Origin: Candidatus Jordarchaeia archaeon | Lineage (GTDB): Archaea > Asgardarchaeota > Jordiarchaeia > Jordiarchaeales > Jordiarchaeaceae | Assembly (NCBI GenBank): GCA_029856435.1 | Contig: JAHQXB010000063.1 | Span: 1-64,000 of the forward strand | Direction: 5' to 3' | DNA: 64,000 nucleotides | Part shown: piece after piece, positions 17,437-61,138 of the stretch | How positions within the stretch are numbered: the first letter of the stretch is position 1 | How the letters are laid out: every line of letters starts with the position of its first letter | Position numbers and translations under genes: made by a program | Notes under the pieces: generated by a model | The model's database searches: none | The model's input: only the letters and a program-made list of their open reading frames with translations | What the model was told of the DNA's origin: nothing

Positions 17437-18422
17437 TCACTCTTCGCCGAACAAAATTTTGGATAGTTCTTTTAGTTGTTCTATGCCCCGGATTTCTTTG
17501 TCGTAGAGGGGAACCTCTGTTATGTTAAAGTCGTCGTATAGTTCATGTATTTCTTTAAGGTTCTCTAACTGCATACTTCTACGTGCCCGACAAAAGGGAC
17601 AGTTAGGTATGTCTGGATAAACCATGTTAACGATTATGTGGTCGCAGGGGATTTCGTACTCGTTGAGAGCGGAGAGTAATCTTTCTGTCTCAAAAACAGC
17701 CATTGCTTCAGGTATCATAACAACTACGAAAGCTGTACTCTCCGGATTCGATAGTTCAGCCCGAGCCACATCAATGGTAGTCTTCAGTTTTTCCAAAACT
17801 TCCATACTGCGATCAACTTCACCGCCCTTGCCGATTAATTTTTTAAAGAGTCCCGCTAGTCGTCCAAAGTATTCCCTTATTTTTAGCATGTTAATAACCC
17901 AGCCGCTGAGTACATCTGGCAGCGATAAGAGCCTTAAGGTGTGTCCCGTTGGGGCAGTATCAAATATTACGAGGTCATACTCAGGATTTTCGATGTATTC
18001 AAGTACCTTAGCAAACGCTAAGGCCTCGTCTGCTCCTGGAGGAGTCATACCAGTTAAGCCCCCCATACTCTCCAGTAGTGATTGGGCCTGAGGCTCGGAA
18101 AAATCTCCTTGCTCCAGATTTTTCTTGTAATCCTCAAAGGCTTTATGAGGGTCAATCTCTAATCCGTAGAGATTTTTTACTCCCTTAATTTTCTTAATTT
18201 TTGGACCTATGTGTTGGTCAAAACTATCACTTAGGCTATGGGCAGGGTCTGTACTAATGATAAGGGTTTTGAGTCCATATTCCGCTGCCCAAATAGCTGC
18301 AGCAGCCGAGCAACTGGTCTTTCCTACTCCCCCTTTTGAGGGACTAGTTAAACATAACTAATCTTTCCTCCGAAGAGTAGGAATTTTACTTGCCTCTCTT
18401 TTAGTAGATCGGCTATTGTCAT
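17437..18422 (-). CDS. Get3/ArsA family ATPase, intron-containing (exons 18422-18365 and 18335-17437; 318 aa)
   Basis: Spliced MTIADLLKERQVKFLLFGGKGGVGKTSCSAA..STDPAHSLSD..PGADE..FDTAPTGHTLRLL..CPFC; AGGTGG upstream of ATG 18422. Confidence 0.92.
18336..18364 (-). other. 29-nt BHB intron in get3/arsA Walker A motif
   Basis: GAGG-AAA-[GATTAGTTA tgtt TAACTAGTC]-CCTC-AAA, flanked by exon helix TTCCTACTC/GAGTAGGAA. Confidence 0.92.
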
Positions 18423-18606
18423 TGCTTACTTCCACCTGTTTTTCAGTTATGATTATGATTGGTGACATATTTACACATTTATGCTTGAATTTAAGTTTTA
18501 TTCATTAGATTCTACCTGTTTTGAGAATTAATTTTTGACCTATTACCTTGAATCGGAGATTTACAATTTATAAAGGTTGAACTTATTTGAAATCCCTGTA
18601 TTTATC

Positions 18607-19260
18607 TTATTTTATCTTGACTCTTTTACCTGTGACCATATAGTAGATTCTTGCTGCCAAGTTACAGGAGTGGTCTGCTATTCTTTCTAGGTATCTTGCT
18701 ATGAATAGGAGGTAGGCGGCATCAGATATTCCGCTTGGCTTCTCTATTACTAGGGTGATTAGTTCTCTAAATATTTGTTCGAAGAGTCCGTCTACTAGGT
18801 CGTCGTCCTCTGAGAGTTTCATTAAATTATCGACTCTTCTTGCGATGAAGGCGTCCAAGGATTTCCTTATCATTCCCTGTGCGATTTCTGACATGCGGGG
18901 AATATCTATTAGTGGCTTGAAAAAGGGTTTTCCAGCTGTTTTTATGGCTATTTCTGCGATGTCTCCGGAATAGTCGCTTATTCGGTCTATGTCTGTTATG
19001 ATTTTTAAGCAGGTTACAATAAAGCGTAAGTCTTCTGCCATGGGTTGCTGAAGTGCTAATAGTTCCATGCAGATTCTCTCTATTTCAAATTCTAGGTCGT
19101 CAACCTTCTTTTCTATCTCTATAACCCTTTGGGCTTGTTCTACGTCTTGTTTTTTGAGAGCGTTTACAGATTCTCGAACCGTCACAATTGACAGCTCACC
19201 CATATCGACAACCATGTCTGCTAATTTTTTTAGTTGGTTCTGGTAACGTAGCCTCAACAT
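18607..19260 (-). CDS. phoU: Phosphate signalling protein PhoU
   Basis: LALQQPMAEDLRFI, DIDRISDY, DDDLVD, YLERIADH; follows pstB. Confidence 0.92.
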   Translation of the reverse strand: MLRLRYQNQLKKLADMVVDMGELSIVTVRESVNALKKQDVEQAQRVIEIEKKVDDLEFEIERICMELLALQQPMAEDLRFIVTCLKIITDIDRISDYSGDIAEIAIKTAGKPFFKPLIDIPRMSEIAQGMIRKSLDAFIARRVDNLMKLSEDDDLVDGLFEQIFRELITLVIEKPSGISDAAYLLFIARYLERIADHSCNLAARIYYMVTGKRVKIK

Positions 19261-19306
19261 TTTCTTTTCAGGTTTTAAAGTTTCTTCCTTCAATGCTATC
19301 CTTCCT

Positions 19307-20149
19307 TTAGCCGAACCTCCCCGTAATGTAATCCCTTGTGCGTTCTTCGCGGGGGTTTTCGAAAATTTTTTCGGTTTCATCATATTCTATAAGTTCGCCT
19401 AGATACATAAAGGCTGTGTATTGAGAAACTCGCGCGGCCTGCTGCATGTTGTGGGTTACTATAACGACCGTGATTTTTTCTTTGAGATCCCATATAAGGT
19501 CTTCGATTTTTGATGTGGCAATGGGGTCGAGTGCTGAGCACGGCTCATCCATTAAAAGAACTTCCGGATTTATAGATAGTGCCCTAGCGATGCAGAGTCT
19601 TTGCTGCTGACCGCCAGAGAGTTCGTATGCATTTACATTTAACCTGTCTTTAACCTCGTCCCATAGGGCAGCCATTTTTAAACTATCTTCCACAATTTTG
19701 TCTAATTCCTTACTATTGTTTACTCCGTGAATTCTGGGGCCATAGGCAACATTGTCATATATGGACATGGGGAAGGGATTAGGTTTTTGGAAAACCATTC
19801 CCACCTTTTCTCTGATAGCTACCACATCGGCGCTATAATCATAGATGTTTTCGCCGTCAAGAAGCACCTCTCCCTCAACCCTAGCCCCATCAAGATCAAC
19901 CAACCTATTGAATGATCTTATTAATGTGGTTTTACCACACCCTGAAGGGCCAATTATTGCGGTGACCTTATTTTTTAATATTTTTAGGTTTATGTTTTTT
20001 AGGACATGATTTTTACCAAACCATAGATTTAGGTCTTTAACCTCTATTTTAACGTTCCTTGTTCTAGTCCTTTTTTCTTTAACTACACTGTCCTCTCTAT
20101 TATTTAATGCCGATAATTTGTTTAACACAGATAACATCATTCTCACCAA
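19307..20149 (-). CDS. pstB: Phosphate ABC transporter ATPase
   Basis: [54 protein letters not shown]. Confidence 0.96.
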
Positions 20150-21051
20150 CCCTTCCTCCTTTTTAAACCTTTATTTCGAATATACATTGCAAAAATGACG
20201 AATAGGAGAACCAGCCCCACAAGCACAAGAGCTGTTCCAAACTCGTAGGGTTTATTGACTGCTGCAAAAGGACTTGTTGTCGCCTCATAGTACAGGTGAT
20301 ATGTCAAAGCCATAACCGGCTGAAAGACATTTGTGGGGTAAAGGCTGCTTTGGTAGAAGACGGCTGCCGCGAAAAGTATGGCGGCAGTCTCGCCGGCGAC
20401 CCGCCCAATCCCCAGTATTGTACCTGTGGAGATTCCCGGCGCTGCTGCGGGTAGAACGGTTTTGGTAATGGTTTCCCACTTTGTGGCCCCTAGAGCTAGG
20501 CTTGCCTCTCGAAAGCTTTTCGGTATGGTCTTCAAGGCTTCCTCTGTTGACTTAACTATTATGGGGAGAGCCATGAACCCTAACACAAGCCAGCCTGAGA
20601 GGAGAGAGACACCGAAGTCTAACTGTTTGCAGAAGAAGGCGAATGCAAAGAGACCGAACACTATCGAGGGAACACCCGCCAAGTTACTAATGGTCTGGAT
20701 TATGAAAGATTTCAGTCGACCCTCGTGCAGGTACTCATTAATGTAGATAGCTGAAAGAATTCCCAAGGGTACAGCTATACAGATAGCACCCGATACTAGA
20801 GCAAGAGTTCCAAATATCATGGGAAGTATCCCCCCATAAGAGAGAGACAAACCTAGTGGTGTGCCATAGAGCATCCTTGCTCCGGGTGTGCCAGTTATAA
20901 ACTCCCAGTTGATTACTTGTGCACCGTTAATTATAATTACGCCCATAATTAGGATGAACGAAGCTAAAATTAGGAGGGTGGGAATGCTGAAAAGTATCTC
21001 GCCGAGACCCACTCCCTTAGTAACAGCGGTTAACTCTTTTTCGACCTTCAC
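20143..21051 (-). CDS. pstA: Phosphate ABC transporter permease
   Basis: [31 protein letters not shown]. Confidence 0.93.
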
Positions 21052-22163
21052 TACCTCACTCCTCCAAACTTCTTTTTGAATCTAGTGTTTATTGTATCTG
21101 CTACGAAATTAACAATGTAGGTGATTATGAAAAGCACCAGTCCAACACCGAAGAGGGCGCTGTAGTGTAGGGTGCCCACTGCAGTTTCTCCCATCTCTGC
21201 CGCTATGGCTGCAGTCATAGGTTTAACAGAGGTAAAGAAAAGTTCCAAGGATAGGGGGGGAATGTTTGCTACGCCTCCACAAACCATAAGCACAGCCATC
21301 GTTTCCCCAAGCGCCCTACCAACAGCCAAAATAATACTCGCAGTAATTCCAGAAATAGCAGCGGGCAGAAGAACTTTACGTACTGTTTGGAAGTGTGTGG
21401 CTCCAAGGGCGAAAGAGGCTTCCTTGTAAGATTGGGGAACGGAGCTTATTGCGTCCTCGCTAATGGAAACAATGGTGGGAAGAATCATAATTGAGAGAAT
21501 AATTGCCCCCGCGAGGGCTGTCTGACCAGATCTAAGATTGAAAATATTGGCAATGTATGGAACAAGAACTGCAAGCCCCACAAAACCATAAACTACGGAT
21601 GGTATCCCTGCCAGAAGTTCAATTACTGGCTTTACGACATTTCTAATTCTTGGGGGGCAGTACTCCGATAGGTGAATTGCAGAGAGAATACCAATGGGCA
21701 CAGCTATAAGTAGAGCACCGCCAACGACGGTGACGGTTCCAGCTATAAGTGGTAAAATTCCGAATTCGTAGCTACTTGGATCCCAAGTTGAGCCTGAAAC
21801 AAAGTTTACAAAACCAATAACAATGTTTCCATTTGCCTGAATTAAAGCATGAAGCCACAAATAGTCAGATAAACCCATTTCGTTAAGAAGAAGAGTAATA
21901 TACAGTCCAATCTGCCAGTAGCCCATCTCCCGAATAATGGGAAGCCCCTGCTGCACTAGGAAAAAAAGAATGAGCATTGTGATGATAAAGCTAGAAAGAG
22001 CACAGAGACCAGTAAGTCCTTCAGGAGAGAACACCCTCTTTAGAAGCTCCACAACCTTTAGTTGCAATATGTCGATTCTGGGAGTCGCAAATTTCATAAA
22101 ACTAGAAACAAAGTTTTTGAGAATTCCCTGTAAACGTTTTCCCAGAATCATAACACCACCCAT
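21051..22163 (-). CDS. pstC: Phosphate ABC transporter permease
   Basis: ELLAGIPSVVYG, MILPTIVSISEDA, RALGETMAVLMV. Confidence 0.93.
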   Translation of the reverse strand: MGGVMILGKRLQGILKNFVSSFMKFATPRIDILQLKVVELLKRVFSPEGLTGLCALSSFIITMLILFFLVQQGLPIIREMGYWQIGLYITLLLNEMGLSDYLWLHALIQANGNIVIGFVNFVSGSTWDPSSYEFGILPLIAGTVTVVGGALLIAVPIGILSAIHLSEYCPPRIRNVVKPVIELLAGIPSVVYGFVGLAVLVPYIANIFNLRSGQTALAGAIILSIMILPTIVSISEDAISSVPQSYKEASFALGATHFQTVRKVLLPAAISGITASIILAVGRALGETMAVLMVCGGVANIPPLSLELFFTSVKPMTAAIAAEMGETAVGTLHYSALFGVGLVLFIITYIVNFVADTINTRFKKKFGGVR

Positions 22164-22200
22164 TAGGTATATTCCAGTCTCACACTTAATATTATGTGTA

Positions 22201-23121
22201 CTACGCGAACGCTACGTAGCCCGCAGCCTCAACAGCCCTTTGACCTATTGGACTTAGCACAAATTTAATGTACATATCAACAGTGGACCCTGGGGTTGGA
22301 ACCCCATTAGTAACATAGTAAAGTGGCCTAGTGGCAGGATAATTTCCATTTCTGATGTTTTCTCTTGTTGGAGCGAAAAATGTTCCGTCGCTTCCGGCAA
22401 TCTCGGCAGTATTGACGTACTGGGTATAAGCAAAGCTGCAATACCCTATGGAGTAGGGGGTACCTAAAACTGAGAAAACCATGTCCTGATTATTGGTTAC
22501 TTCTTGATTTACCTTTGTCACACTAATCCCGAAGAGTTTTTCGAAGGATTCGCGGGTGCCAGAGTTGGGCTCTCTACCAATAACCCATATTGTTTCAGCA
22601 GGCAAACCTGAGTTAACCTGGTTCCATCTAGTGTAAACTCCGCTGTATATGTTTACCACCTGCTCTTTAGTCAGCTTCAAATTCACTTGCCCGGGAATAT
22701 TCCAGATTATACATATAGCATCCAGTGCCACAGCATTGAGATGGAGTGTTACACCATTTGCAGAAGCTCTAATAAGTTCACTGCTCTTAGGAGGGCGAGA
22801 AACAGCTCCTATGGGCGAAATCCTGTCAATAACATTACTGTACCCCAAGCCTGAGCCCCCAGCAGACACTTGAACATTAATCCCCGTGGCCGCGTGAAAG
22901 AGCGGCGCTTCAGCAAGTGTAATCGGCAAGACTGTGGTTGAACCTGCTATATTTAAGGTGTCTGAAGCCTGACCAGTGTATATACCTAAACTCTGCTGCA
23001 AATCTGCCTGAGGTTTTATGAAGATTATGGGATAAATAATGAACATTGAAATAGCTGCCATTGCTAGTATGAGCATTATTATTAGTAGTGTTTTTTTGCG
23101 GGGCAAGTTTAATGCCATCAT
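22201..23121 (-). CDS. pstS: Phosphate ABC transporter substrate-binding protein
   Basis: IAGSTTVLP, GGSGLG, REPNSGTR, YPATRPLY; N-terminal TM anchor. Confidence 0.92.
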   Translation of the reverse strand: MMALNLPRKKTLLIIMLILAMAAISMFIIYPIIFIKPQADLQQSLGIYTGQASDTLNIAGSTTVLPITLAEAPLFHAATGINVQVSAGGSGLGYSNVIDRISPIGAVSRPPKSSELIRASANGVTLHLNAVALDAICIIWNIPGQVNLKLTKEQVVNIYSGVYTRWNQVNSGLPAETIWVIGREPNSGTRESFEKLFGISVTKVNQEVTNNQDMVFSVLGTPYSIGYCSFAYTQYVNTAEIAGSDGTFFAPTRENIRNGNYPATRPLYYVTNGVPTPGSTVDMYIKFVLSPIGQRAVEAAGYVAFA

Positions 23122-23232
23122 TTCCTATCCATTTTCTTCCTTTTCGCATGGACATCTAATTTTATGCTTTACTAATATTTTCCTAAAGATTCATAAGGAT
23201 ACATATGTATACTTATTGTAGGTGTTTGTGGT

Positions 23233-24213
23233 ATGGAATCTAGAAAAATTCAAGAGGTTAAGGGGTCTTTCTATGTTTATTTGCCTAAGGACTGGTGTGC
23301 AAAGTCTAAAATAAAAGGTGGAAGCGAGGTAGTTATTCAGCAGTTGGATGATGGAAGTCTAGTAATATTTTCCAATAAGGAAGTCTATAAGCAGAAATTG
23401 AGCGGGGTTTTTGATGTTGAAAACTGCGATTCACATGTAGCCAACGTAATACTGCTTGCAGGGTATATAGTGGGACTGGATCAATTCAGCCTAGTATCTA
23501 CAAAAGAAATTTCCCTTGAATTCAGAGAAAATATAGAAAGCCATGTAAGAAATATGATAGGGGTAGAGGTTGTAGATGAAACAGACAAATCCATAGTAGT
23601 TAAGGACATAAGTGAGGGCACATCCATAAAGCCTATAATTCAGAGGCTACTTAACACCACGGGTTACATTCTCACTAGTGTAGTAAGGATAATAAGGATC
23701 GGGGATCGCAAAGAGGCTCAGGCAATTATTAACCGTGATGATGATGTTGACAGGTACAATTGGTTGGTTCAGAGGATGGTTCACCTCATACTTGAGAATC
23801 CCGCGCTTGCTCGAGAATTAAATATATTACCCATAGAAGGGCTGCATTATAGCCATATAACAAGATACATTGAAAGAATAGCGGATCACGCAGTGGCCAT
23901 AGCTGAGCAAATTTTGGCTAGTGGAACAATTAATGAGGATTTGTCCAAGTTTGCAGAAAAGGCTAATGAAGTATATAATTCACTCATTGATGTTTTCTTT
24001 AACAGAAACTTGAAGAAGGCTTTTGAGATTTTGGAACAGAGATCTAATCTTAAAAGGGAACTACGAATTTTGGAAAAAGAGTTTCCAGAAAACAAGATAA
24101 TTATTATACACCTTGAAAGAATCATTGATTACTGCTCCGACATTGCTGAAACCGCCATAGATCAAACAGTATACAACATGGTTCTGAAAAAGAGAACCAT
24201 AAAATGCTTTTAA
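23233..24213 (+). CDS. Archaeal phosphate uptake regulator (AbrB/SpoVT domain + PhoU domains)
   Basis: RKIQEVKGSFYVYLPKDW N-terminus; DDDVDR, IERIADH; divergent from pstS. Confidence 0.88.
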   Translation: MESRKIQEVKGSFYVYLPKDWCAKSKIKGGSEVVIQQLDDGSLVIFSNKEVYKQKLSGVFDVENCDSHVANVILLAGYIVGLDQFSLVSTKEISLEFRENIESHVRNMIGVEVVDETDKSIVVKDISEGTSIKPIIQRLLNTTGYILTSVVRIIRIGDRKEAQAIINRDDDVDRYNWLVQRMVHLILENPALARELNILPIEGLHYSHITRYIERIADHAVAIAEQILASGTINEDLSKFAEKANEVYNSLIDVFFNRNLKKAFEILEQRSNLKRELRILEKEFPENKIIIIHLERIIDYCSDIAETAIDQTVYNMVLKKRTIKCF

Positions 24214-24246
24214 CGAGTATACGTAGTAATTGAAAAGGAGTTCCGT

Positions 24247-29449: not shown

Positions 29450-29472
29450 TCCGCGAGGATGGAGGATAAAAA

Positions 29473-36513: not shown

Positions 36514-36720
36514 TGGTGCGGAGGACGAGATGTGTTCAGGGGGTAGCAGGTACCACCGCCTTTGAACTCGTGTAGGCCTATGTGAACTCCCAGATGACTG
36601 GGGGTTTCTACGCCACAGGAGCTCTGATATGCGAGTGATTTGAACTCGAAAACCTCAGTCCTGCTCCATGCCAGTCGAGCCCTTGAGGGGCGACATTTGA
36701 CCTGGCTCGGAAACCTCCGC
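36514..36720 (-). tRNA. tRNA-Leu(GAG) with four introns and encoded CCA
   Basis: Acceptor GCGGAGG/CCTCCGC+ACCA; introns 36695-36668 (D-loop, 28 nt), 36652-36622 (37/38, 31 nt), ~36607-36578 (variable arm, 30 nt), 36561-36532 (T-loop, 30 nt); removal gives an 88-nt class II cloverleaf. Confidence 0.92.
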
Positions 36721-37096: not shown

Positions 37097-37265
37097 GCAG
37101 GGATTTCCGAGTGGTCAATACCCAGCAGTGGTTGGCTACAGGAGCTGGGCTTAGGACCCAGTGGCGTAGTGGTGTCGGCCTGTTTTGGTGGCGCCGCGTA
37201 AGCCTTCGCGTGTTCGAAAAGAAGCATCAGATTGATGCAGCTCGATAGTCACGCTCCCTGCACCA
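37097..37265 (+). tRNA. tRNA-Leu(TAG) with three non-canonical introns and encoded CCA
   Basis: Acceptor GCAGGGA/TCCCTGC+ACCA; anticodon arm CTGGG-CTTAGGA-CCCAG uninterrupted; introns 37119-37139, 37170-37201, 37219-37248; 86-nt mature tRNA. Confidence 0.93.
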
Positions 37266-47611: not shown

Positions 47612-48982
47612 ATGACACAAACGCAAAAAGGAGAAAAATTTGAAGTCAAAGACCTAAAACTAGCACCAAGCGGACGAGCAACAATTGAGTGGGCAGAATC
47701 AAGAATGCCCGTGCTCATGCAAATAAGAGAGAGGTTCCGAAAAGAAAAACCGCTTAAAAACACCATAGTAGGAGCATGCCTCCATGTAACAAAAGAAACA
47801 GCAGTTCTTGCAAAAACCCTGAAAGCTGGAGGTGCAGAAGTCTACCTCTGTGCCTCAAACCCCCTATCAACACAGGACCATGTAGCCGCCGCACTGGTAG
47901 AAGAAGGAATAAACACATTCGCCTGGAAAGGCATGGACTACGAAGGCTACTACCGAGCAATAGCCAACGTTATTAAGGGAGAACCGAACATCACACTAGA
48001 CGACGGCGCCGACCTAGTATCAACCTTAATCAAACTCAAAAGAGGAGAAACCGGCGAGGAAATCAAGGTAGTTAAGAAAATTCTTGGAAGCCGAACAGAC
48101 TGGGCGGACAAAGTATGGGCCGGAGCCGAGGAGACCACAACGGGCGTAATCCGCCTTAGAGCCATGGCAAAAGATAACGTGCTACTATACCCAATTATAG
48201 CTACAAATGATACCCCCACAAAATGGGAAACATAAACACCCCCCGTGTTTAAGCCCAAATTTGACAACCTGTGGGGAACTGGGCAAAGCACCATAGACGG
48301 CATACTGAGAGCAACAGCAGACCTTATCGCGGGCAAAATTTTTGTAGTCGCAGGGTATGGCCATTGCGGTAGAGGCGTAGCGCTAAGAGCTAAGGGGCTA
48401 GGAGCGAGAAGAGTCATCATATGCGAGATAAATCCACATCGAGCCTTAACAGCCGCCTTAGAGGGTATGGAAGTAATGCCCATGAGGGAAGCCGCAGAGG
48501 TGGGAGACATTTTCGTAACCGCCACAGGATGCAAGAACGTCATAAATGCAGAACATATGAAAAAGATGAAAAACGGAGCAGTGATGTGTAACACAGGTCA
48601 CTTTAATGTGGAAATAAATATACCTGACTTGGAGAAAATCAGCGTTAGCAAGAGAGAGATAAGACCACTAGTCGATGAGTACACACTGGAGGATGGAAGA
48701 AAAATCTACCTACTAGCCCAAGGCAGGCTTGTGAATCTAGCATGTGCTGAGGGACACCCAAGCGAAGTTATGGACATGAGCTTTTCTGATCAGGCTTTAG
48801 CTGTGGAGTGGATTGTTAAGAATAGGGATAAGCTGTCTGGGATGGGTAGTGTGGTTTTGGATATTCCTGAAGAGATTGATAGGACTGTTGCAGAATTGAA
48901 GTGTAAGGCTATGGGTCTTAGATTAGATGTTTTGACCCCTGAGCAGGAAGCTTATTTGTCGGGCTGGGCTGAAGGAACCTAG
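47612..48982 (+). CDS. ahcY: S-adenosylhomocysteine hydrolase, intron-containing (exons 47612-48229 and 48260-48982; 446 aa)
   Basis: [30 protein letters not shown], spliced [37 protein letters not shown]. Confidence 0.95.
48230..48259 (+). other. 30-nt BHB intron in ahcY (contains in-frame TAA)
   Basis: TGGG-AAA-[CATAAACAC ccccc GTGTTTAAG]-CCCA-AAT. Confidence 0.92.
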
Positions 48983-49663: not shown

Positions 49664-50782
49664 ATGGATACTGAGGAAAAGGTTCAGCGTGTCTTGCGTG
49701 GCTTGAGTGAGGTTATTACTGTTGAGGATTTGCGCAATTTGTTTGAGGTAGATAACCACCCTAAGGCTTACATAGGTGTTGAGCCTTCTGGATAAACCTT
49801 TTAGGCTTTCTAGGGTTCCAGAATATTTCATTTGGGCTGGGTGGTTTGGGCCTGGAAGGTTCAGGATTTGGTTCTTTGTGATGTGGATATGCATGTTCTC
49901 GAAGCGACTTGGCATGCTAAGATTAATGACAAGTTTGGTGGAAACATGGATACCATACACACCTGTGCAAAGTATATTGAGCACTGTTTACAAGCGTTGG
50001 GTGTAGATATTGGTAGGGTTCGTTTTCCAAAGGCTGAGGATCTTATGGATAGTTTGGATTATTGGGCCACAGTGATAAACATTGCTAAAAACACTACGCT
50101 GGCACGTATTAAGAGAGCTATGAGTATTATGGGCCGCAAAGTAGACGATGCTGAATCGGATTATTCAAAAACGCTTTATCCTTGCATACAAGTGGCTGAC
50201 ATCTTATATGCTGGTTTTAAGCTGTGTCTGGGTGGGACTGACCAGAGAAGAGCTCACATATTGGCGAGGGAGTTGGCTCCTAAGTTCGGCTTGGATTGGA
50301 AGCCGGTAGCGATTCACACTCCTCTCCTCATAGGCTTGGAGGGATTATCGAGGATGGAGGTTGAAGGTGTGAATGAGGATGTTTTAATGGAGGCCAAGAT
50401 GTCGAAATCCAAACCTCAAACAGCAATTTTTATACATGATAAGCCAGAGGAAATCAGGAGTAAAATCTCTGCTGCCTTTTGCCCACCTAAACAGGTAGAA
50501 TTCAATCCAATAATTGAAATAAATAGGCTTCTTCTTTTTTCCAGAGAAGGTTTCATTCTTCATGTGGAACGTGAGGAAAAATTTGGAGGGGATGTAGATT
50601 TTGAGAGCTTTGATGAATTGAAATCTGCCTACAGCGCCGGTAATCTCCATCCTCTGGACTTGAAACGGGCTACTGCAGAGGCACTCATTGCACTGCTGAA
50701 AAATGTTAGACAACATTTTGAAAAGAATAGTGAAGCCCGTAACCTTTTAGAAACATTAAAAAAGGCTACAGTGACCCGGTAA
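49664..50782 (+). CDS. tyrS: Tyrosyl-tRNA synthetase, intron-containing (exons 49664-49793 and 49824-50782; 362 aa)
   Basis: Spliced KAYIGVEPSGLFHLGW, YPCIQVADI, GGTDQRRAH, KMSKS, LHPLDLK. Confidence 0.95.
49794..49823 (+). other. 30-nt BHB intron in tyrS HIGH-motif region (creates in-frame TAA)
   Basis: CTGG-ATA-[AACCT..GGGTT stem-loop]-CCAG-AAT. Confidence 0.92.
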
Positions 50783-52889: not shown

Positions 52890-54011
52890 TTGAAGGAAAA
52901 AAGTGAAAAGATTCGACATATTTCTACTTCCGTCCGTGAAGAGCCTTTAAAAAAGAAGGAACGAATGCAATATCTATCTGTGGTGGAGCTACAGCCATCA
53001 GGTTTTCCTTTCCGGCTTGTGGGAGAGGAGCCCCCTATAGCCTTATTGACCGACGACACTGAACTGTTCCAAGCATACGCTAGGGAACAGTGGGCGGGTA
53101 TTTGTGTTAAGAAGGGGGATTACCTATTTGACCAACTGGTTTTCCCAGATTTCGCCTTTAAGGTTTCCGACGCTCAGCCAGCTCGGGGAAGGATAGGTTT
53201 TTCCACACGTTTCATTCTTAAGAGGAAACCCTTCAGTGAGGAGAAGAGACCGTCAATTCGTTTCTCAGATGTTATAGGGCAAAACGAAGCTAAAAGCAAG
53301 TGTCTGATAATTAAAAAATATTTGGAAAATCCGAAAGCCTTTGGGGACTGGGCGCCGAGAAACATTCTGTTCTATGGGCCTCCAGGAACGGGGAAAACAA
53401 TGCTGGCTCAAGCACTGGCCAACGAAACAAATGCGCCCTTCTATTTAATTAAATCCACAGATTTGATAGGAGTTAATGTCGGTGATGCTTCAAGAAGGAT
53501 ACACTCTGTCTTCAAAATAGCGTCGGACAATGCGCCTAGCGTTATATACCTTGACGAAATTGACGCCATAGGGTTAGATCGCAGCTTCCAAAACATAAGA
53601 GGGGACGTATCAGAGGTAGTTAATGCTTTGTTGGGGGAGCTGGACGGATTAACCGCGAATTTTGGCGTTGTATGCATAGGAGCCACAAATAATCCTATCA
53701 TGCTAGATAAGGGAATCAGAAGCAGATTCGAAGAGGAAATAGAGTTCAAACTTCCCAACGCTGAAGAACGGGAACAAATTCTCAGACTCTACATATCAAA
53801 AATGCCCTTGCCGGTAAAAGTGGACATTAAAAAGATAGTTAGAAACACTGAAGGCTTCTCTGGAAGAGACCTTAAAGACAAAATCCTTAAAGCAGCGCTA
53901 CACAAAGCTATACTACAAGAGGAAAAATGTGTAACCCAAGACATAATAGACGCCGTACTTAAACAACTCAATGACAAATCACCAAAAGAAAAACCCAAAA
54001 TGTTCACTTGA
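52890..54011 (+). CDS. Archaeal AAA-family ATPase
   Basis: FSDVIGQ, WAPRNILFYGPPGTGKT, YLDEIDAI, RSRFEEEIEF. Confidence 0.92.
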   Translation: MKEKSEKIRHISTSVREEPLKKKERMQYLSVVELQPSGFPFRLVGEEPPIALLTDDTELFQAYAREQWAGICVKKGDYLFDQLVFPDFAFKVSDAQPARGRIGFSTRFILKRKPFSEEKRPSIRFSDVIGQNEAKSKCLIIKKYLENPKAFGDWAPRNILFYGPPGTGKTMLAQALANETNAPFYLIKSTDLIGVNVGDASRRIHSVFKIASDNAPSVIYLDEIDAIGLDRSFQNIRGDVSEVVNALLGELDGLTANFGVVCIGATNNPIMLDKGIRSRFEEEIEFKLPNAEEREQILRLYISKMPLPVKVDIKKIVRNTEGFSGRDLKDKILKAALHKAILQEEKCVTQDIIDAVLKQLNDKSPKEKPKMFT

Positions 54012-54069
54012 AATAATTTAAATTGTTAAACCCAAAAATTTCTATAAACAGTTTTCTACAGATTAACAG

Positions 54070-54621
54070 GTGCCAGTCTTGAAAATCATCGGCCTTGTAG
54101 GAATGCCGGGCAGCGGAAAGACATTAGCGGTAAATGTAGCAAAAAACTTGGGTATACCAGTAATATCAATGGGAGACGTGGTTCGTGAAGAGGTAAAATT
54201 AAGAGGCTTGGAGGAAACGCCCCAAAACGTAGGCTATGTGTCAAAGGATTTGAGGGAAAAAGAAGGCCCCCAAGCTGTGGCCCAAAGGATACTCGCCAAA
54301 ATTAAGAAGGAAAAGGCTCCCGTTATTCTTGTTGAGGGAATTAGAAGCCTCCAAGAGATAGAATTATTCAAGACACTCACATCTGACTTCACACTAGTCG
54401 CTATCCATTCGTCGCCCAAAACCCGCTACCGACGTTTAAGTGGAAGGGGACGGTCGGACGACGCTAAGGACATCAGAATTTTTCAGGAAAGAGACCTCAG
54501 AGAAATAAATTATGGGATAGGGGCGGCAATCGCTATGGCAGATTACATGATAGTAAATGAGGGCAGCGAATCAGAGCTGATGAGAAAAGTTCAAACAATT
54601 CTAGAGGGGATAATACAATGA
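54070..54621 (+). CDS. Nucleotide kinase / dephospho-CoA kinase-like (UPF0200)
   Basis: GLVGMPGSGK, SMGDVVREE, EGIRS, RGRSDD. Confidence 0.85.
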   Translation: MPVLKIIGLVGMPGSGKTLAVNVAKNLGIPVISMGDVVREEVKLRGLEETPQNVGYVSKDLREKEGPQAVAQRILAKIKKEKAPVILVEGIRSLQEIELFKTLTSDFTLVAIHSSPKTRYRRLSGRGRSDDAKDIRIFQERDLREINYGIGAAIAMADYMIVNEGSESELMRKVQTILEGIIQ

Positions 54622-55049
54622 TAGAAATGGAAATCGAAGCCCCAGTATACCACACTGAGAGTAGAGACAAAGTGGAAAAAGCTCTAAAGTCTGTCGTGGA
54701 CACAACCTACACTTTATTAGAGGGGGTAGGATTAAAGGTTCTTCGTGGCAAAGCTCAAGGTCTGGAGGGACTTGTGAAACTTCATCAACAGTTGAGGGAA
54801 CAACTCATAGTTGAATCGGCAAGAAAAATTTTGGTAAGAAACATAATGGGAAACACAGTAACATTCTACCTACATAAGCAAGCAGCCTTTATGGGAAAAA
54901 TACACTTCTGCCAACCAGAATCAGAATCCCCAATGGGTTCCATAAAAGTAACAATAAAAAGCACCAACATTGAGAAGCTGGTGGACTGGCTTACGCCAAA
55001 AACTATTGAGGGCAAGCCCTTAGAGAGGCCCCCACCAACAGACTGTTAA
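54618..55049 (+). CDS. UPF0201/DUF54 putative RNA-binding protein
   Basis: APVYHTESRDKVEKAL, LHKQAAFMG, WLTPKT. Confidence 0.8.
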   Translation: MIEMEIEAPVYHTESRDKVEKALKSVVDTTYTLLEGVGLKVLRGKAQGLEGLVKLHQQLREQLIVESARKILVRNIMGNTVTFYLHKQAAFMGKIHFCQPESESPMGSIKVTIKSTNIEKLVDWLTPKTIEGKPLERPPPTDC

Positions 55050-55067
55050 AAAAGGGAAGAAATAAAA

Positions 55068-55874
55068 TTGGCAGGTATGAAACTAGGCATCTCAACTATG
55101 CCCTTCATAAAAAGTCACTTCAACGAAATTGTGAAAACAATTGAGAATACTCCAGAAAATTTAGAATTGGACTGTTGGGAAATCATTGAAGAAGGATTCC
55201 ACTTTTTAAACCCGGAAAGAATAAAAATGTTAAAGAATGCCGCTTCAACATGCAAAATAAGTTATACAGTTCACGCTCCCTTCGCAGGAATCAACTTAGC
55301 CTCACCAGAGCCTCTCCAATCGGTTCTGCTAGATTTCATGGACAAGTCACTTGAAAGAAGCCACACCCTAGAGGCTGAAATATTTATAGTACACCCAGGG
55401 GTACTTTCACCCTTCACGATTCACTTCCCCGAATTAGCTTGGGAGAGCCTAAAAAACGCAATAAGACATCTGTGTAAGCTTTCAGAGGCTTTGGGCTCTC
55501 CTAAAATTGCAGTTGAAAATATGGCGCCACCTTATCCTTTTCTGGTTTCCCAAAGTCAAGATATAGAGAGGCTGTTTCAAGAACTTGAAGATTGTGAATT
55601 TGGTTTGTGTCTGGACATTGGACACGCCCAAAAATCGGGCGGAGTGAAAACCTTCATTAAACATGTGGAACAGTACGTAACACATGTGCATGCCCATGAT
55701 AATATTGGGGATGATGACGCTCACCTACAGGTTGGAAAGGGAATCGTTGATTGGAAATATGTTGTCGGCACACTTAAAAAACTAAATTTTGGAGGATATA
55801 TTGTTGTTGAGAATACTACCTTAGATGATGCTTATAATAGTGTGCGCTTTTTAAAATCAGTTATTAACCATTAG
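55068..55874 (+). CDS. Sugar phosphate isomerase / AP-endonuclease-2 TIM-barrel protein
   Basis: TVHAPF, IVHPG, AVENM, CLDIGHA, HVHAHDN..DAHL..G.G.VDW, VVEN. Confidence 0.88.
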   Translation: MAGMKLGISTMPFIKSHFNEIVKTIENTPENLELDCWEIIEEGFHFLNPERIKMLKNAASTCKISYTVHAPFAGINLASPEPLQSVLLDFMDKSLERSHTLEAEIFIVHPGVLSPFTIHFPELAWESLKNAIRHLCKLSEALGSPKIAVENMAPPYPFLVSQSQDIERLFQELEDCEFGLCLDIGHAQKSGGVKTFIKHVEQYVTHVHAHDNIGDDDAHLQVGKGIVDWKYVVGTLKKLNFGGYIVVENTTLDDAYNSVRFLKSVINH

Positions 55875-55886
55875 GTTTTCTCAGTA

Positions 55887-56789
55887 CTATTCCAGAACTA
55901 TCTCCATAAGATCCTCTCCTAGGATGCTGTTTTTAAAAATTTTTTTAGCTTGTTCCAAAAGTTCGTTGGAGTTCTTGTACCTTGAACTTATATGAGTAAG
56001 AATCAATTTTTGCACCCCCGCTTCTTTAGCCACTTTTGCAGCTTGGGTGGTTGTGGAGTGCTTTGTCTCCATTGCCTTTTCTTCCAAGTCTTCTCCATAT
56101 GTGCTATCATGTATTAGGATAGTGGCGCCTCTACTTATTCTTTTAACAGAGTCGCAGGGAGGAGTATCTCCTGAATAAACAATTCTTCTTCCAGGCCTTG
56201 GAGGATCCACCACTAGGTTTGGCTCTATTCTTCTCCCATCTGGAAGTGTAACGTTTTCGCCGTATTGTAATTTTTTCCATAGAGGTCCCATAGGTATTCC
56301 TAAAGCTCTAGCCTTTTCAGGATGGAATTTACCCGGCCTATCCTTTTCAATAAAGGCAAAGGCAAAAGAATTGTTGTGCTCCGTCCTTGTACATTCAATG
56401 GTATAGAGGTTCGTCTCACATACTAACCCTTCAGTAACCTCTTCGATATACACGTGGAATGTGAGAGTAAATTCTACCGTTGTCTCTATGGCTTTGACGA
56501 AGTCGGCAATGCCCTTTGGACCAAATATGTAGAGGGGTTTCTCACGGTTCATTAGAGAAAGTGTTTGCAATATTCCGGGAATGCCCATTATGTGGTCACC
56601 GTGAAGGTGAGTGATAAAAATTCTATTAATTCTGTTTACACTTAAATTTGCCTTCTCCATCTGTCTTTGTGTTCCCTCAGCACAGTCGAACAAAATAATC
56701 TCTCTATCTATCTTTATGGCTATTGCCGGAAGGTTCCTATCGGCAGTAGGCATTCCGCCAGAGGTTCCCAGCAGTACTATTTTCAGCAA
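55887..56789 (-). CDS. rnz: Ribonuclease Z
   Basis: LGTSGGMPT, FDCAEGTQRQ, THLHGDH, YSGDT, LTHISSRY. Confidence 0.96.
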   Translation of the reverse strand: MLKIVLLGTSGGMPTADRNLPAIAIKIDREIILFDCAEGTQRQMEKANLSVNRINRIFITHLHGDHIMGIPGILQTLSLMNREKPLYIFGPKGIADFVKAIETTVEFTLTFHVYIEEVTEGLVCETNLYTIECTRTEHNNSFAFAFIEKDRPGKFHPEKARALGIPMGPLWKKLQYGENVTLPDGRRIEPNLVVDPPRPGRRIVYSGDTPPCDSVKRISRGATILIHDSTYGEDLEEKAMETKHSTTTQAAKVAKEAGVQKLILTHISSRYKNSNELLEQAKKIFKNSILGEDLMEIVLE

Positions 56790-56792
56790 CTT

Positions 56793-57824
56793 TCACTTCC
56801 TCAGCACTATAATTTGACGTGTTAAACTCTTGTGTACCGGTATCAAATGTTTTTCTACTATTCGAAAACTTGTCCCCGAAATAAATTCATTTACATTGAT
56901 TGTTAAGGGAGTGCCCAGACAGACATATCCCTTTGGACTAGATAGTTCATCCAATTCCTGTAAGAAGAACTCAATAAGTTCCTCGGGGCGGGCGCCCTTA
57001 GTGGAGGCCGATCCTCCGTATGGAGGATCCGTTGCTATGCTGTCAAAACGGTTGAAGGGAAGATGCTTTGCGTCTGAAAGTATAATGTTCCAGTTGACTA
57101 CGTTGAAGTGTAGGAGGTTCCTTTTCGCGCCTCGAACCATTTTTTTGTCTACGTCGGAACCTATAGTTTTACAACCCATAAGGCCCGCCTCAATTAGAAG
57201 ACCTCCCGCTCCACAGAATGGATCCAAGAAGAATTCTTTGGGTCTAGCCCGGGAGAGATTAACCATGGCTCTGGCAAGATGGGGATTCATAGAGCTGGGA
57301 ATAAAGAAAGGCCTGAACTTTGCCTTTCTGAGACCTAAGGCCTTCCTTTCAGATTCCCTGACACTTATCCCAAATAGGAATACGCCGTCCGTTAAAACGC
57401 CATAAAACAATTTATCAGGGTTTTCAAGATTGGCCCTTGCCCCCACACTTCTATGAATGAAGGCGCCGATTTCTTTTTCCAAAAGGAGTGAACTCACCTC
57501 CGGTGAATAATTTTTTATGCGTTTCACTCTAACGGCAAAAGTTTCTCTGGCTGAGATGTGTTTCTGAAAATCTGTGTCTCGAAGCGAAGTCATTATCTGG
57601 TTGAAATCCGCTTCACATTTAAATAGTGAAATGCAGCATCTGTGAACCATTGCGGCGCGTTCAGCTATTCTTTGGCAGCTCTCTTCCTCCGCGTTTAAGA
57701 GTAGTATTTGGTCATATTTTTCTGCTTTATAATCCATGTTCAGGCTTTCAAGTATTGCTAAGCACTCTGCAATGGCTATTGTTGTGGTTTCTCCAGATAG
57801 AAGGTAAAAATGGTTTTTAATCAC
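56793..57824 (-). CDS. tRNA (guanine-N2)-methyltransferase Trm11/TrmG10 (THUMP + MTase)
   Basis: TFAVRVKR, RPFFIPSSM.P.LARAMVN, DPFCGAGG, ATDPPYG. Confidence 0.92.
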   Translation of the reverse strand: MIKNHFYLLSGETTTIAIAECLAILESLNMDYKAEKYDQILLLNAEEESCQRIAERAAMVHRCCISLFKCEADFNQIMTSLRDTDFQKHISARETFAVRVKRIKNYSPEVSSLLLEKEIGAFIHRSVGARANLENPDKLFYGVLTDGVFLFGISVRESERKALGLRKAKFRPFFIPSSMNPHLARAMVNLSRARPKEFFLDPFCGAGGLLIEAGLMGCKTIGSDVDKKMVRGAKRNLLHFNVVNWNIILSDAKHLPFNRFDSIATDPPYGGSASTKGARPEELIEFFLQELDELSSPKGYVCLGTPLTINVNEFISGTSFRIVEKHLIPVHKSLTRQIIVLRK

Positions 57825-58714
57825 TCTTTCAACGCCTCAGCGATAATAGGAGCTACAGACACTAAACTAACATCGCTGGGGACTGTGTCGGTTGCAATTA
57901 TTTCAGTTACTCCTGCGTTAAGAATCCTCAACCGGGAGTCCCCCACTAGGATGGCGTGAGTGCATGCGGCGTAAATTTTTGAGGCGCCTTGATTTTTAGC
58001 GATTTCAACTGCTTTAACCATAGTTCCGCCAGTACTGATAATGTCATCCACTACAACCACATCGTGATTGATGACATCGATCTCTTTACTCTTGGTTTCG
58101 ATTTCACCCGTGTACTTATCCCTAGACTTGCTGAGAACCACATATTCGGCGCCTAAAAATTCCGCGAGTTTTTTGGCCCTATTCGTAGCTCCTTCATCTG
58201 GGGAGATAATAACAGGCTTCATCAGTTCATACTTGTTTAAATATTCACCCAGAAGGGGAACAGCGCTCAAGTCCTTCACAGGAATTCTGAGATTCTCAAA
58301 AAGTCTTTTGTTATGAATATCAACTGTTATTATTTCGTCGGCACCCGCATTCTGGATTATGTTACAAACTATTTTTCCACTCACCGCTTCGCCGGGCAGA
58401 AATCTTTTGTCTTGTCGGGCGTAAGCAAAATAGGGAACAACCGCTGAAACCTTCGCTACGCCCAATTCTTTTAGAGTTTCAATTATGAAACAGAGCTCAA
58501 CTATACCTTGATCAGGGTTTGGAGGTATCGTGGACTGAACCACAATAGCGTGACGATTTTTTGGCGCCTCTTTAATTCTGATGTATTTCTCCCCATCTGG
58601 GAAGGTCTTGAACTCAACTGGAATAACTTCACATTTTAAACATCTAGAGATACGCAGACCCAAGAGTTGTGAACTGGGACCAGGTACTACTACTTTTTCC
58701 GACAAATTCATCAA
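57821..58714 (-). CDS. prs: Ribose-phosphate pyrophosphokinase
   Basis: FPDGEKYIR, PYFAYARQDKRF, SPDEGA, VDDIISTGGT. Confidence 0.96.
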   Translation of the reverse strand: MMNLSEKVVVPGPSSQLLGLRISRCLKCEVIPVEFKTFPDGEKYIRIKEAPKNRHAIVVQSTIPPNPDQGIVELCFIIETLKELGVAKVSAVVPYFAYARQDKRFLPGEAVSGKIVCNIIQNAGADEIITVDIHNKRLFENLRIPVKDLSAVPLLGEYLNKYELMKPVIISPDEGATNRAKKLAEFLGAEYVVLSKSRDKYTGEIETKSKEIDVINHDVVVVDDIISTGGTMVKAVEIAKNQGASKIYAACTHAILVGDSRLRILNAGVTEIIATDTVPSDVSLVSVAPIIAEALKE

Positions 58715-58918
58715 CTCTTCTCTAAAACATTAATCTACCAAATTTTCTAAAAATCTGCTCTTAACACGAGATAACTTACAGATATTTAAAGGCTGTTCAT
58801 CTTTATTCCTGATATATTAAAAATATTTTAGGTCAAATAAGCTCGCAAAAACATCCACAGAACATTATTTTGGGTTGCAGCATCTGACTACAATGTTTTA
58901 AAAGTTGGAAGGGTACAT

Positions 58919-59971
58919 ATGTATCTAGAAAACTCTTTAATTTTGGTGAAGCTTTTGCTAAAGGAAACAATGATTTACGAGAAGCTTGAAAATGACATGG
59001 TAAAATGCGGGATCTGTCCTCATCGCTGTTTAATTAAACCCGGAAAGAGAGGAAAATGTAAAACAAGAGAAAACAGAGAGGGGGTTCTCTACTCCCTTGT
59101 TTATTCTTCAATATCTGCGATGGCTAATGATCCCATTGAGAAAAAACCTCTGTTCCACTTTTATCCGGGTAGCACTGCCTTTTCTATATCAACAGTGGGT
59201 TGTACTTTTCATTGTCTCCACTGCCAAAACTGGAGCATCTCTCAAGCAGAGCCCGAATCTGGCTTAACTAGGGAGTTCCCACCAGAAGAGATTGTTTCAG
59301 CAGCTAAGAGAAGTGGTAGCCGTTCCATTGCATATACCTATAATGAGCCCTTCGTTTTCTACGAATTCGTCTATGATACTGCAAAGATTGCAAAGGAAAA
59401 CAACATAAAAAATATTCTGGTTACAAATGGATATGCTACACCTGAGGCCATAGAAAAAATAGCCCCTTTAATAGATGCAGCAAACATTGATGTGAAAGCA
59501 ATGAGCGAAGAATTTTACAAAGAAGTATGTGGGGCGCGGCTTCAACCAGTCTTAGACGCCGTGCTCCTCATGAAGGAGAAGGGCATTCATGTAGAAATTA
59601 CGTATCTGATAATCCCCCAGAAAAATGATAGTGCAGAGGAAATAAAGAGATTTGTAGAATGGGTTAAGGGTAATTTGGGACTGGATATACCCATCCATTT
59701 CTCAAGGTTTTATCCCCATTACAAAATGACAAATCTTAATCCCACCCCAGTTCAAACAGTCATTAAAGCCAGAGAAATCGGGCAAAAAGCAGGGCTGCAC
59801 TACGTCTATTGCGGGAATATACCGGGGCAGGGAGAGAACACGTATTGCTACAATTGTAACCAATTAATAGTGGGACGATGGGGATACTCAATAGAAGAGT
59901 ACAAACTTGCCAAAGGCAACACGTGCCCAAACTGCGGAACGAAGATAAACATGATTGGAGGAGGGGGATAG
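58919..59971 (+). CDS. AmmeMemoRadiSam-type radical SAM enzyme (start probably 58955-58970)
   Basis: CGICPHRC, DPIEKKPLFHFYPG, GCTFHCLHCQNW, YTYNEP, HFSRFYP. Confidence 0.9.
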   Translation: MYLENSLILVKLLLKETMIYEKLENDMVKCGICPHRCLIKPGKRGKCKTRENREGVLYSLVYSSISAMANDPIEKKPLFHFYPGSTAFSISTVGCTFHCLHCQNWSISQAEPESGLTREFPPEEIVSAAKRSGSRSIAYTYNEPFVFYEFVYDTAKIAKENNIKNILVTNGYATPEAIEKIAPLIDAANIDVKAMSEEFYKEVCGARLQPVLDAVLLMKEKGIHVEITYLIIPQKNDSAEEIKRFVEWVKGNLGLDIPIHFSRFYPHYKMTNLNPTPVQTVIKAREIGQKAGLHYVYCGNIPGQGENTYCYNCNQLIVGRWGYSIEEYKLAKGNTCPNCGTKINMIGGGG

Positions 59972-59988
59972 CTCCCATCTAAAATGTT

Positions 59989-61138
59989 TTAGGATACTGG
60001 ACGCCAGATAATTCCTAGTTCATCCGCTGTTTTGTATGCTTCCTCCATTTCGTGGCTAGTAACCCTTCTACATATGTCTGCATATTCCTTCCTTCTTGGC
60101 ACCTCGTGTGTTGGGTGATACTGTTCCATTATGTTAACTAAAGCCTTGGGGCAATTTTTAGCCACCCATTCAAGAACCGGTTTGGTGCAACACTCAATGT
60201 GTCCCGGTAAAACTAGGTGCCTTATTATCATGCCAGATGTTCCTGGTTCCACAGTTTCATCATAGGCCATTTTATGATTTCTTGAAACAATTTCCCAGTA
60301 ATTAGAAACTTTACTCAACCTTTCTGCGCATTGATCATTCCCATATTTAAAGTCGGGGAGCCAGAAATCCATAACGTCTAATAAAAGCTTCATACATTCT
60401 TTGGAACAGTACATATTAGAATTCCATAGTTGTACAATGTTTGTTTTAGTTTCCCTTACGCCCTTTAAAATGTTGTAGGTGTTTGGAGTTGGTTCTCCAC
60501 CCACATAATTTATGTTTCTTGCACCTTCCCTCTTTAGATCTCTTGAGATTCGTGCAAGGCTCTCACCCGAAGTTTCTATACCGTTTTTTGGATTTGTGGA
60601 AATGTCATAGTTCTGACAAAACACGCATTTAAAAGTGCAACTGGAGAAGAAGAATGCACCGTAAGAGCCTTAACTCTTAAGCGTTTGTGCCTGAAGGAAC
60701 TAAAGGGGCCTCTTCTCCAGTATGTATGAATGCTGAGGATACATAAGACTCTCTGCCAAGTTTACAAAATCCTTTTTCACCCTCCAGTCTATTAGCCCCA
60801 CACCGTCTTTCACAGAAATGACACTGCGATAGAATCCTTCTTGCTAGTTCCACCTTAGCATCTAAATAAGAAATCTTCGGCGAATCAATGTTTCCCAGAT
60901 CCAGTTCACCTGCATCAATCCGCCTCAAGACACTCCTAAAAACACCACTTATTCTATCATGCTCATCCCAAAGCTTGCCCAGCTCCGCATCTAGCTCAAC
61001 ATCTACACCTACTTTTAAAGCTATCATAAACTTAGCATAAAGCCTATCATTGAATACCTCATAGTACCTCCAAAGCCTCTCACGAACTGTACCGTCATCC
61101 CAAACACGGTAAGCATCTGGGCGAATTAGCTTCCACAT
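59989..61138 (-). CDS. PflX-like radical SAM protein, intron-containing (exons 61138-60685 and 60653-59989; 372 aa)
   Basis: CHFCERRCGANR, spliced HTGEEAPLVPSGTIFFSSCTFKCVFCQNYDIS, VGGEPTP, PDFKYGND, RHLVLPGH. Confidence 0.92.
60654..60684 (-). other. 31-nt BHB intron in pflX-like gene
   Basis: GCAC-AAA-[CGCTTAAGAG ttaagg CTCTTACG]-GTGC-ATT. Confidence 0.92.

Follow-up and report, generated by a model that had tools for sequence, protein, structure and literature searches.

The 64,000-nucleotide stretch analysed here (the window; positions 1 to 64,000 of contig JAHQXB010000063.1 of a Candidatus Jordarchaeia archaeon) contains four unrelated and for the most part indispensable protein-coding genes, get3/arsA, ahcY, tyrS and a pflX-like radical-SAM gene, each of which is interrupted by an insert of 29 to 31 nucleotides (nt), and from comparison with related genomes we consider it very probable that the four inserts are introns of the relaxed HBh' type of the bulge-helix-bulge (BHB) class and that the mRNAs are spliced by the endonuclease EndA and the ligase RtcB. 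Splicing by EndA and RtcB is favoured because the junctions are exact, the inserts are under structural constraint, the genes are live and single-copy, the enzymes are present in the genome, tRNA introns of the same motif and size class (seven in number) sit 11 kb from the protein-gene inserts, and a genome-wide census recovered further cases. The contig, of which the window forms a part, is 91 kb long and belongs to a metagenome-assembled genome (MAG; G000) of 3.54 Mb that is 97.8% complete. The closest protein matches of this genome belong to Candidatus Freyarchaeum deiterrae, Freyarchaeota and Jordarchaeales, in agreement with the original prediction, made from the window sequence alone, that the DNA comes from an Asgard lineage, and the source genome is placed in the Asgard genus Freyarchaeum. 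For comparison, all 11 species genomes of its GTDB class were searched with the larger exon of each gene; these fall into two families, of which f1 consists of the single genus g1 (G000 and G006-G010, where G006 is the complete Ca. Freyarchaeum deiterrae genome) and f2 consists of the genera g2 (G001-G004) and g3 (G005).

In the get3/arsA gene, which lies on the minus strand, exon 1 (18365..18422, with the ATG at 18422) comprises 19 codons plus 1 nt and ends in FGG-K, where the frame stops at half a P-loop; the 29-nt intron (18336..18364) has the helix GAGG/CCTC, the bulges AAA/AAA and an inner hairpin of 7-9 bp, and exon 2 (17437..18335) runs from GGVGKT to the stop codon, matching Pfam ArsA_ATPase (6.5e-61) and positions 6-297 of the 299 in NCBIfam TIGR00345. 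The ahcY gene, on the plus strand, is divided into exon 1 (47612..48229, positions 1-179 of the 416 in TIGR00936), a 30-nt intron (48230..48259; helix TGGG/CCCA, bulges AAA/AAT) that is in frame and contains one TAA, and exon 2 (48260..48982, positions 181-416 of 416). Also on the plus strand, tyrS consists of exon 1 (49664..49793; 43 codons plus 1 nt, positions 1-43 of the 342 in NF006330), a 30-nt in-frame intron (49794..49823; helix CTGG/CCAG, bulges ATA/AAT) with the three stops TAA, TAG and TAG, and exon 2 (49824..50782, positions 45-339 of 342), which begins with the junction codon T/TA for Leu and continues as FHLG...KMSKS. The profile coordinates of the exon pairs of ahcY and tyrS thus abut. 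In the pflX-like gene, on the minus strand, exon 1 (60685..61138; 151 codons plus 1 nt) is continuous with exon 2 in the orthologs of eight other Asgard families, the intron (60654..60684) has 31 nt, the helix GCAC/GTGC and the bulges AAA/ATT, and exon 2 (59989..60653; Pfam Radical_SAM and Fer4_12) begins with the junction codon A/TC for Ile followed by FFSSCTFKCVFC. The inserts of get3/arsA and of the pflX-like gene shift the frame. A 4-bp helix followed by three unpaired bases was found in all four inserts, and helix and bulges are kept in every intron-bearing ortholog. The anatomy and positions given in the original prediction were borne out for all four genes, and the span it named, 18336 to 60684, is bounded by the outer ends of the first and last introns.

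The rule proposed together with that anatomy, a cut behind the second base of each bulge, restored the frame and the signature motif in all four genes, yielding FGGK/GGVGKT, TKWE/FDNLWG, EPSG-L-FHLG and PSGT-I-FFSSCTFKCVFC (slashes in peptides mark the junction), and in each of the four the sequence after the predicted cut is exactly that of the intron-less orthologs of related genomes. In the comparison across relatives that was suggested with the original prediction, presence and absence differ, with the get3/arsA, ahcY and tyrS inserts missing from some genomes of the class and the pflX insert missing from other Asgard families. The get3/arsA insert occurs only in G000, G008, G009 and G010 (28-29 nt) and is missing, precisely deleted, from G006 and each of the five f2 genomes, which read GGnAAr/GGnGGnGTnGGnAAr (FGGK/GGVGKT) with zero extra bases. 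The ahcY insert is present in all six g1 genomes and in G005 (23-30 nt) and absent in the four g2 genomes, in which AAATGGGAG is directly followed by TTCGACAAC (KWE/FDN). The tyrS insert is present in all six g1 genomes (30-31 nt) and absent in four f2 genomes, whose sequence EPSGLAHLP has a Leu that agrees with the junction codon obtained by the cut rule. Of the class genomes, ten yielded the pflX-like gene, and all of them have the insert (27-31 nt); the uninterrupted orthologs of the eight other Asgard families read PSGTIFF.(S/G)C..C.FCQNYD, in which the Ile is the predicted junction residue. An assembly artefact is excluded, as between 4 and 10 independent assemblies, and also 11 public TyrRS clusters, show the same inserts.

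The inserts also evolve as RNA structures. The stems occupy shifted positions between families, which made MAFFT alignments of the introns insensitive to structure, and each ortholog was anchored on its helix instead. The insert lengths among orthologs range from 23 to 31 nt, with differences that are frequently not divisible by three, and the exons nevertheless stay in frame, so the insert is evidently not translated. Neither the 4-bp helix nor the bulges vary between species, save for one G-C to G-U change in G001, and the inner stem of the pflX insert shows compensated changes, being TAAGAG/CTCTTA in g1, CTGGA/TCCAG in G005 and CCAGAG/CTCTGG in g2; the inner stem of the ahcY insert of G005 is of unrelated sequence with the pairing retained. 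In the comparison of G000 with G010, 6 of the 120 positions of the four introns are different, compared with 22-34% of synonymous sites. Judged from these comparisons, the constraint acting on the inserts is one of RNA structure and not of coding sequence.

The splicing enzymes expected by the original prediction are present in the genome, which has two paralogs of the EndA catalytic domain (PF01974) on contigs C104 and C64 (108 and 80 bits) and one RtcB on C93 (579 bits), the reading frame of which contains one TGA. Two EndA paralogs are consistent with an enzyme of the (alpha-beta)2 form, and the Asgard EndA is described as a broad-specificity (alpha-beta)2 type with an L1 loop, and relaxed HBh' motifs are the targets of (alpha-beta)2 or epsilon2 endonucleases (PMC5829648). 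The four sites belong with these relaxed motifs, and cutting them requires an EndA of broad specificity. In the proposed mechanism, each gene would be transcribed together with its insert, and the end of the 5' exon would pair with the 3' end of the intron to form the 4-bp helix with its two flanking 3-nt bulges, for which the intron hairpin would serve as a prop; a heteromeric (alpha-beta)2 EndA would then cut after the second base of each bulge and RtcB would ligate the exons. Ligation would restore the P-loop of Get3/ArsA, the TKxxFDN motif of AhcY, the HIGH region of TyrRS and the radical-SAM segment just before the CxxxCxxC cluster. The same enzymes would excise the seven introns of two neighbouring tRNA-Leu genes, and the window would be one instance of a genome-wide habit in which about 2% of the conserved genes in G000 bear introns.

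Several results weigh against this reading. The outer exon-exon helix has only 0-3 bp, and the motifs are relaxed ones of doubtful fit to the strict hBHBh' form (outer and inner helices of at least 2 bp). The minimum-energy fold given by RNAfold favours a 7-bp helix in a competing register at the tyrS site and is without the central helix at the pflX site, and the folding z-scores of the four sites (-3.4, -2.1, -1.65 and -1.3) are modest overall and weak for three of the four. Searches of protein databases and JGI contigs for spliced products yielded only unspliced or truncated forms and no RNA-derived sequence: among 5.8 billion assembled proteins there was no full-length AhcY above 73% identity and no full-length TyrRS above 56% identity, and a scan of JGI contigs with an N{0,30} ahcY junction pattern gave one match, which was unspliced DNA. 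In the folds the inner helix is good at all four sites, and the 3' bulge is drawn as an internal loop of 2x2 or 1x2. The label BHB used in the original prediction suits the inner stem, the central helix and the bulge on the 5' side, but given the short outer helix it is better worded as relaxed BHB, or HBh'-like. The weak outer helix, and the fact that the predicted folds are not always those of minimum energy, could also be taken to mean that the inserts leave the RNA by a machinery other than EndA and RtcB, such as another pair of nuclease and ligase or a process dependent on guide RNA, and the substrate range of the Freyarchaeum EndA is unmeasured, as is likewise stated in bioRxiv 10.64898/2026.10.13.758758. 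We regard such a machinery as very unlikely, since the 4-bp helix, the 3-nt bulges and the cut at the second base are the signature of EndA and predict every junction, an (alpha-beta)2 EndA is known to accept relaxed HBh' motifs (PMC5829648), and no other candidate was seen.

A second alternative is translational bypassing, or ribosome hopping, in which the mRNA would keep the insert and the ribosome would take off before it and land after it. The known bypass elements, in phage T4 gene 60 and in mitochondrial byp, have sizes of 27-55 nt, which are similar to those of the inserts; in addition, the in-frame stop of tyrS right after the take-off site (GGA TAA) resembles that of gene 60, and a take-off and landing pair of Lys AAG and Lys AAA is conceivable for get3/arsA. 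However, no matched take-off and landing codons were found in ahcY, tyrS or the pflX-like gene, and the Leu of tyrS and the Ile of the pflX-like gene obtained by the bulge cut rule match the orthologs, where hopping would give other residues or lengths. The conserved helix and the two 3-nt bulges are, moreover, identical to those of the nearby tRNA introns, where no ribosome acts, and bypassing is accordingly rated as extremely improbable.

The four loci could also be broken genes, either pseudogenes or pairs of independently translated polypeptides, with the BHB-like shape being coincidental. It is true that gene callers do report exon 2 alone (TyrRS calls of 313 aa), that a GTG inside the ahcY insert could serve as a start for exon 2, and that no spliced product was observed in the database and contig searches described above. 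Yet the ratio of nonsynonymous to synonymous substitution rates (dN/dS) of the exon after the insert was 0.033-0.056 between G000 and G010 (dS about 0.27-0.29), with 0.008 for ahcY, and 0.04-0.08 between G000 and G006 or G007 (dS >1), and values of 0.008-0.08 over dS up to >1 indicate strong purifying selection and are not those of decaying pseudogenes, in line with the original prediction. Intact second copies of tyrS or ahcY, which would have pointed to decay of the window loci, were looked for genome-wide, and none was found for tyrS, ahcY or get3: the whole-genome search at the level of protein families gave one TyrRS, one AhcY and one Get3/ArsA above curated cut-offs, each at the window locus with its stops, while the pflX-like gene has only distant paralogs in the genome. 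The genes that would be broken are therefore all single copies, including the only TyrRS. The breaks also lie inside indivisible motifs; exon 1 of get3/arsA, for instance, has 19 residues and stops halfway through the P-loop, which leaves no way for the two parts to function as separate polypeptides. Conservation of helix and bulges, with compensatory changes in the stem, likewise speaks against broken genes. As for coincidence, when random genome positions were drawn, a 4-bp helix with bulges at exactly the frame-restoring length lay no more than 6 nt away in 14.8% of the trials, and in 2.5% when a good inner stem was included, whereas the same motif was seen at 11 of the 13 homology-defined inserts listed, 9 of them with a good inner stem. 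The motif is thus present at the inserts far beyond chance and the observation is real, and there is hardly any probability left for broken genes of either kind.

The public annotation of these genes is affected as the original prediction had foreseen. All 11 public TyrRS clusters at least 80% identical to the window TyrRS are calls of exon 2 only (273-336 aa), which shows that the tyrS intron is fixed in the clade and that annotation pipelines truncate the gene. The TyrRS of g1 has 42-43% identity to that of the sister family f2 and 54-56% identity to TACK-type enzymes (Thermoprotei, Bathyarchaeia and Methanomethylicia), and judged from these identities it may be a xenologous replacement.

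Group I and group II introns and inteins were ruled out, as the inserts have only 29-31 nt, where a ribozyme core of hundreds of nt or an in-frame protein-splicing domain would be required, and at least three of the four bear stops or break the frame; a search of the window with Rfam gave no match at the gathering cut-off or at E<=1.

To place the four genes in the context of the genome, a scan for the motif inside split open reading frames (ORFs) had been proposed with the original prediction, and this proposal did not succeed, in that it could not separate introns from gene boundaries. In the scans of genome and window for motif plus ORF continuity, co-directional gene boundaries dominated, and the true cut and cuts shifted by 1-2 nt gave equal counts; the strict inner-stem rule of the scan also missed two of the four known introns. 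We therefore consider a motif-free census, in which stop-to-stop ORFs of relatives were compared with G000 by tblastn, the sole requirement being extra DNA on the G000 side, and in which a part of each relative was used (1.19 Mb of G004 from f2, 0.8 Mb of G021 from family f13, and one 179-kb contig of G047). Inserts of 28-33 nt were found at 9 of the 493 distinct G000 loci compared with an outgroup (about 1.8%), and all nine have the 4-bp helix, the 3-nt bulges and a frame-restoring cut. Two of the nine are the ahcY and pflX-like inserts of the window. The other seven are located in ppsA (C125, 29 nt); a roadblock/LC7-like small gene (C5:19779, minus strand, 31 nt, CGAC/GTCG); the gene of ribosomal protein eL42 (L44e) (C42:8859-8891, plus strand), where the 33-nt insert is in frame with two stops, has GCCT/GGGC with bulges AAA/AAA and is located at GYGSQP/KPIQKRF; the gene of an HdrC-like ferredoxin (C49:335, plus strand, 30 nt, CAAG/CTTG), where it is located between cysteine motifs at CTTCYTCQE/RCPRK; the gene of OFOR alpha (C66, 33 nt, YPI/TPQT); rtcB (C93, 30 nt); and endoQ (C24, 28 nt). 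The TGA in the rtcB frame is accounted for by this insert, which lies between LPD and AHQGYG. Three further candidates were rejected as artefacts of alignment, namely C44:21016, where the frame is open straight through, C71:9323, which is upstream of the start codon, and C73:16643, a dubious ORF. Nine BHB inserts in 493 conserved loci speak for a system rather than isolated cases, as had been claimed from the window, and the rate of about 1 per 50 kb of conserved coding DNA suggests some tens of introns in a genome; having four in 64 kb, the window lies above the genome average. The G047 contig (G047:C1), from an Asgard MAG, added next to nothing to the census; with its dense cluster of tRNA genes free of introns and hardly any protein matches to G000, it has the appearance of a bacterial contaminant.

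The introns differ between relatives. G006 is without the get3/arsA intron and without the eL42 intron, and its eL42 is annotated as a normal 91-aa protein. Full-length 91-aa eL42 matches in the databases were considered as spliced products and rejected, being genomic intron-less alleles that include that of Ca. Freyarchaeum deiterrae. The ahcY gene of G006 (G006:C1:1874871-1878398, minus strand), in turn, has three introns, all with canonical helices and bulges: one of 56 nt (CCGG/CCGG, bulges AAT/AAT) at TTTG/IVR, the shared one of about 29 nt, and one of 191 nt (CCAG/CTGG, bulges TGA/TAA) at GHPSEVM/DMSF, the excision of which gives the same peptide as in G000. BHB-like inserts that are not in G000 were found in protein genes of G004 (C1, near 445969, 565618 and 549895; 29, 30 and 59 nt) and of G021 (C1, near 320575 and 654018; 54 and 38 nt), so mRNA introns also exist outside genus g1. 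In addition, the Odin-like family f3 (genomes of 1.3-1.4 Mb; G042:C33, and also G011, G022 and G032) has a 29-nt BHB insert in the pflX-like gene with GCGT/ACGC and bulges ATA/AAT, seven codons downstream of the G000 site and inside CxxxCxxC, which from its position looks like an independent gain.

Within coding sequence, the literature searched has introns of this kind for just one archaeal gene, cbf5 of Crenarchaeota, the pre-mRNA intron of which was reportedly treated by Watanabe in 2002 and Yoshinari in 2006. In the literature searched, BHB introns in mRNA were limited to crenarchaeal cbf5 (PMC2738675) and the 5' untranslated region (UTR) of Haloferax HVO_1309 (PMC7714728), and the latter study names cbf5 as the sole earlier mRNA example. 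The cbf5 pre-mRNA intron occurs in Crenarchaeota of the Desulfurococcales and Sulfolobales (Yokobori 2009, PMC2738675). Similar to the inserts described here, it is a short BHB-type intron within coding sequence whose presence and absence vary between related lineages; it is removed by the heteromeric tRNA-splicing endonuclease and a ligase, while splicing in the present case is predicted from sequence. A key difference is that cbf5 is one gene per genome, whereas here the introns affect four genes unrelated to one another within 64 kb and, across the genome, about 2% of the conserved loci. The hosts are also different, being get3/arsA, ahcY, tyrS, the radical-SAM gene, and also eL42 and rtcB, of an Asgard archaeon and not cbf5 of Crenarchaeota, and some genes have several introns, such as the three of G006 ahcY with sizes up to 191 nt. 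The 5'-UTR BHB intron of HVO_1309 in Haloferax volcanii, which was confirmed as an endonuclease substrate in vivo and in vitro (PMC7714728), likewise makes an archaeal mRNA the target; its intron lies in the untranslated leader and the protein is independent of it, in contrast to the inserts here, which break the frame or add stops within catalytic motifs. The kind of intron is thus known (the cbf5-type archaeal mRNA intron), and the scale, the hosts and the multi-intron genes are new.

The eukaryotic splicing of HAC1 and XBP1, to which the original prediction drew a line, is similar in that it is spliceosome-independent mRNA splicing in which a protein endonuclease acts at paired stem-loops and a tRNA ligase (RtcB or Trl1) joins the exons. 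It differs in its endonuclease (Ire1), its recognition motif, its regulation by stress and its single substrate, and an evolutionary link would be speculation drawn from analogy.

It is reasonably likely that in several Asgard lineages mRNA splicing without a spliceosome is routine and a normal part of gene expression, with dozens of BHB introns per genome that are gained and lost on the timescale of species, in essential genes (TyrRS, eL42) as well as in rtcB, and with independent gains in f3 and f13. If this is true, these archaea would be the first prokaryotic group with common protein-gene introns removed by a protein enzyme and a living example of intron spread driven by a permissive tRNA-splicing enzyme, and the rtcB intron would make a self-dependent loop for the ligase gene. 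If the mRNAs of the window are spliced, the charging of tRNA-Tyr, the recycling of S-adenosylmethionine and the insertion of tail-anchored proteins would depend on mRNA splicing by the tRNA machinery, as would ribosome assembly and RNA ligation itself through genes elsewhere in the genome; what was a curiosity of one gene, cbf5, would become a system spanning the genome in those prokaryotes that are most closely related to eukaryotes, and a tractable model for the invasion of coding sequence by introns and their fixation. Since standard annotation truncates or splits intron-bearing genes, metabolic reconstructions and completeness estimates of these archaea are biased.

The original prediction of seven introns (21-32 nt) in two tRNA-Leu genes was confirmed, as both genes give valid cloverleafs once the introns are removed. 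The tRNA-Leu(GAG) gene (36514..36720, minus strand) has four introns, at 36696-36671 (26 nt, D-loop), 36652-36622 (31 nt, position 37/38), 36607-36578 (30 nt, variable arm) and 36561-36532 (30 nt, T-loop), and only after their removal does ARAGORN report a clean 90-nt tRNA-Leu(gag). The tRNA-Leu(TAG) gene (37097..37265, plus strand) has three, at 37119-37139 (21 nt, D-loop), 37170-37201 (32 nt, variable arm) and 37219-37248 (30 nt, T-loop), and is likewise reported as an 86-nt tRNA-Leu(tag) only after intron removal. Several of these introns follow the cut rule, for example a T-loop intron with GUUC/GAAC and bulges AAA/ACA; a 3-of-4 helix was seen in one, and another is relaxed. In the raw window ARAGORN and Rfam find no tRNA, and a scan of the window for T-arm and acceptor missed the tRNA-Leu genes because their T-loops are interrupted. 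On the whole of G000 (3.54 Mb) ARAGORN calls only three tRNA genes, one of them with an implausible intron of 664 nt, so standard tRNA finders are nearly blind in this genome. Multi-intron tRNA genes are known in Freyarchaeia/Jordiarchaeia and Atabeyarchaeia (PMC11291895; bioRxiv 10.64898/2026.10.13.758758), and searches of these two papers, which treat tRNA genes only, turned up nothing on introns in protein-coding genes. The tRNA introns of Freyarchaeia and Atabeyarchaeia share lineage, motif and size class with those of the window, and the tRNA-Leu introns of the window are ordinary members of this phenomenon known for Freyarchaeia.

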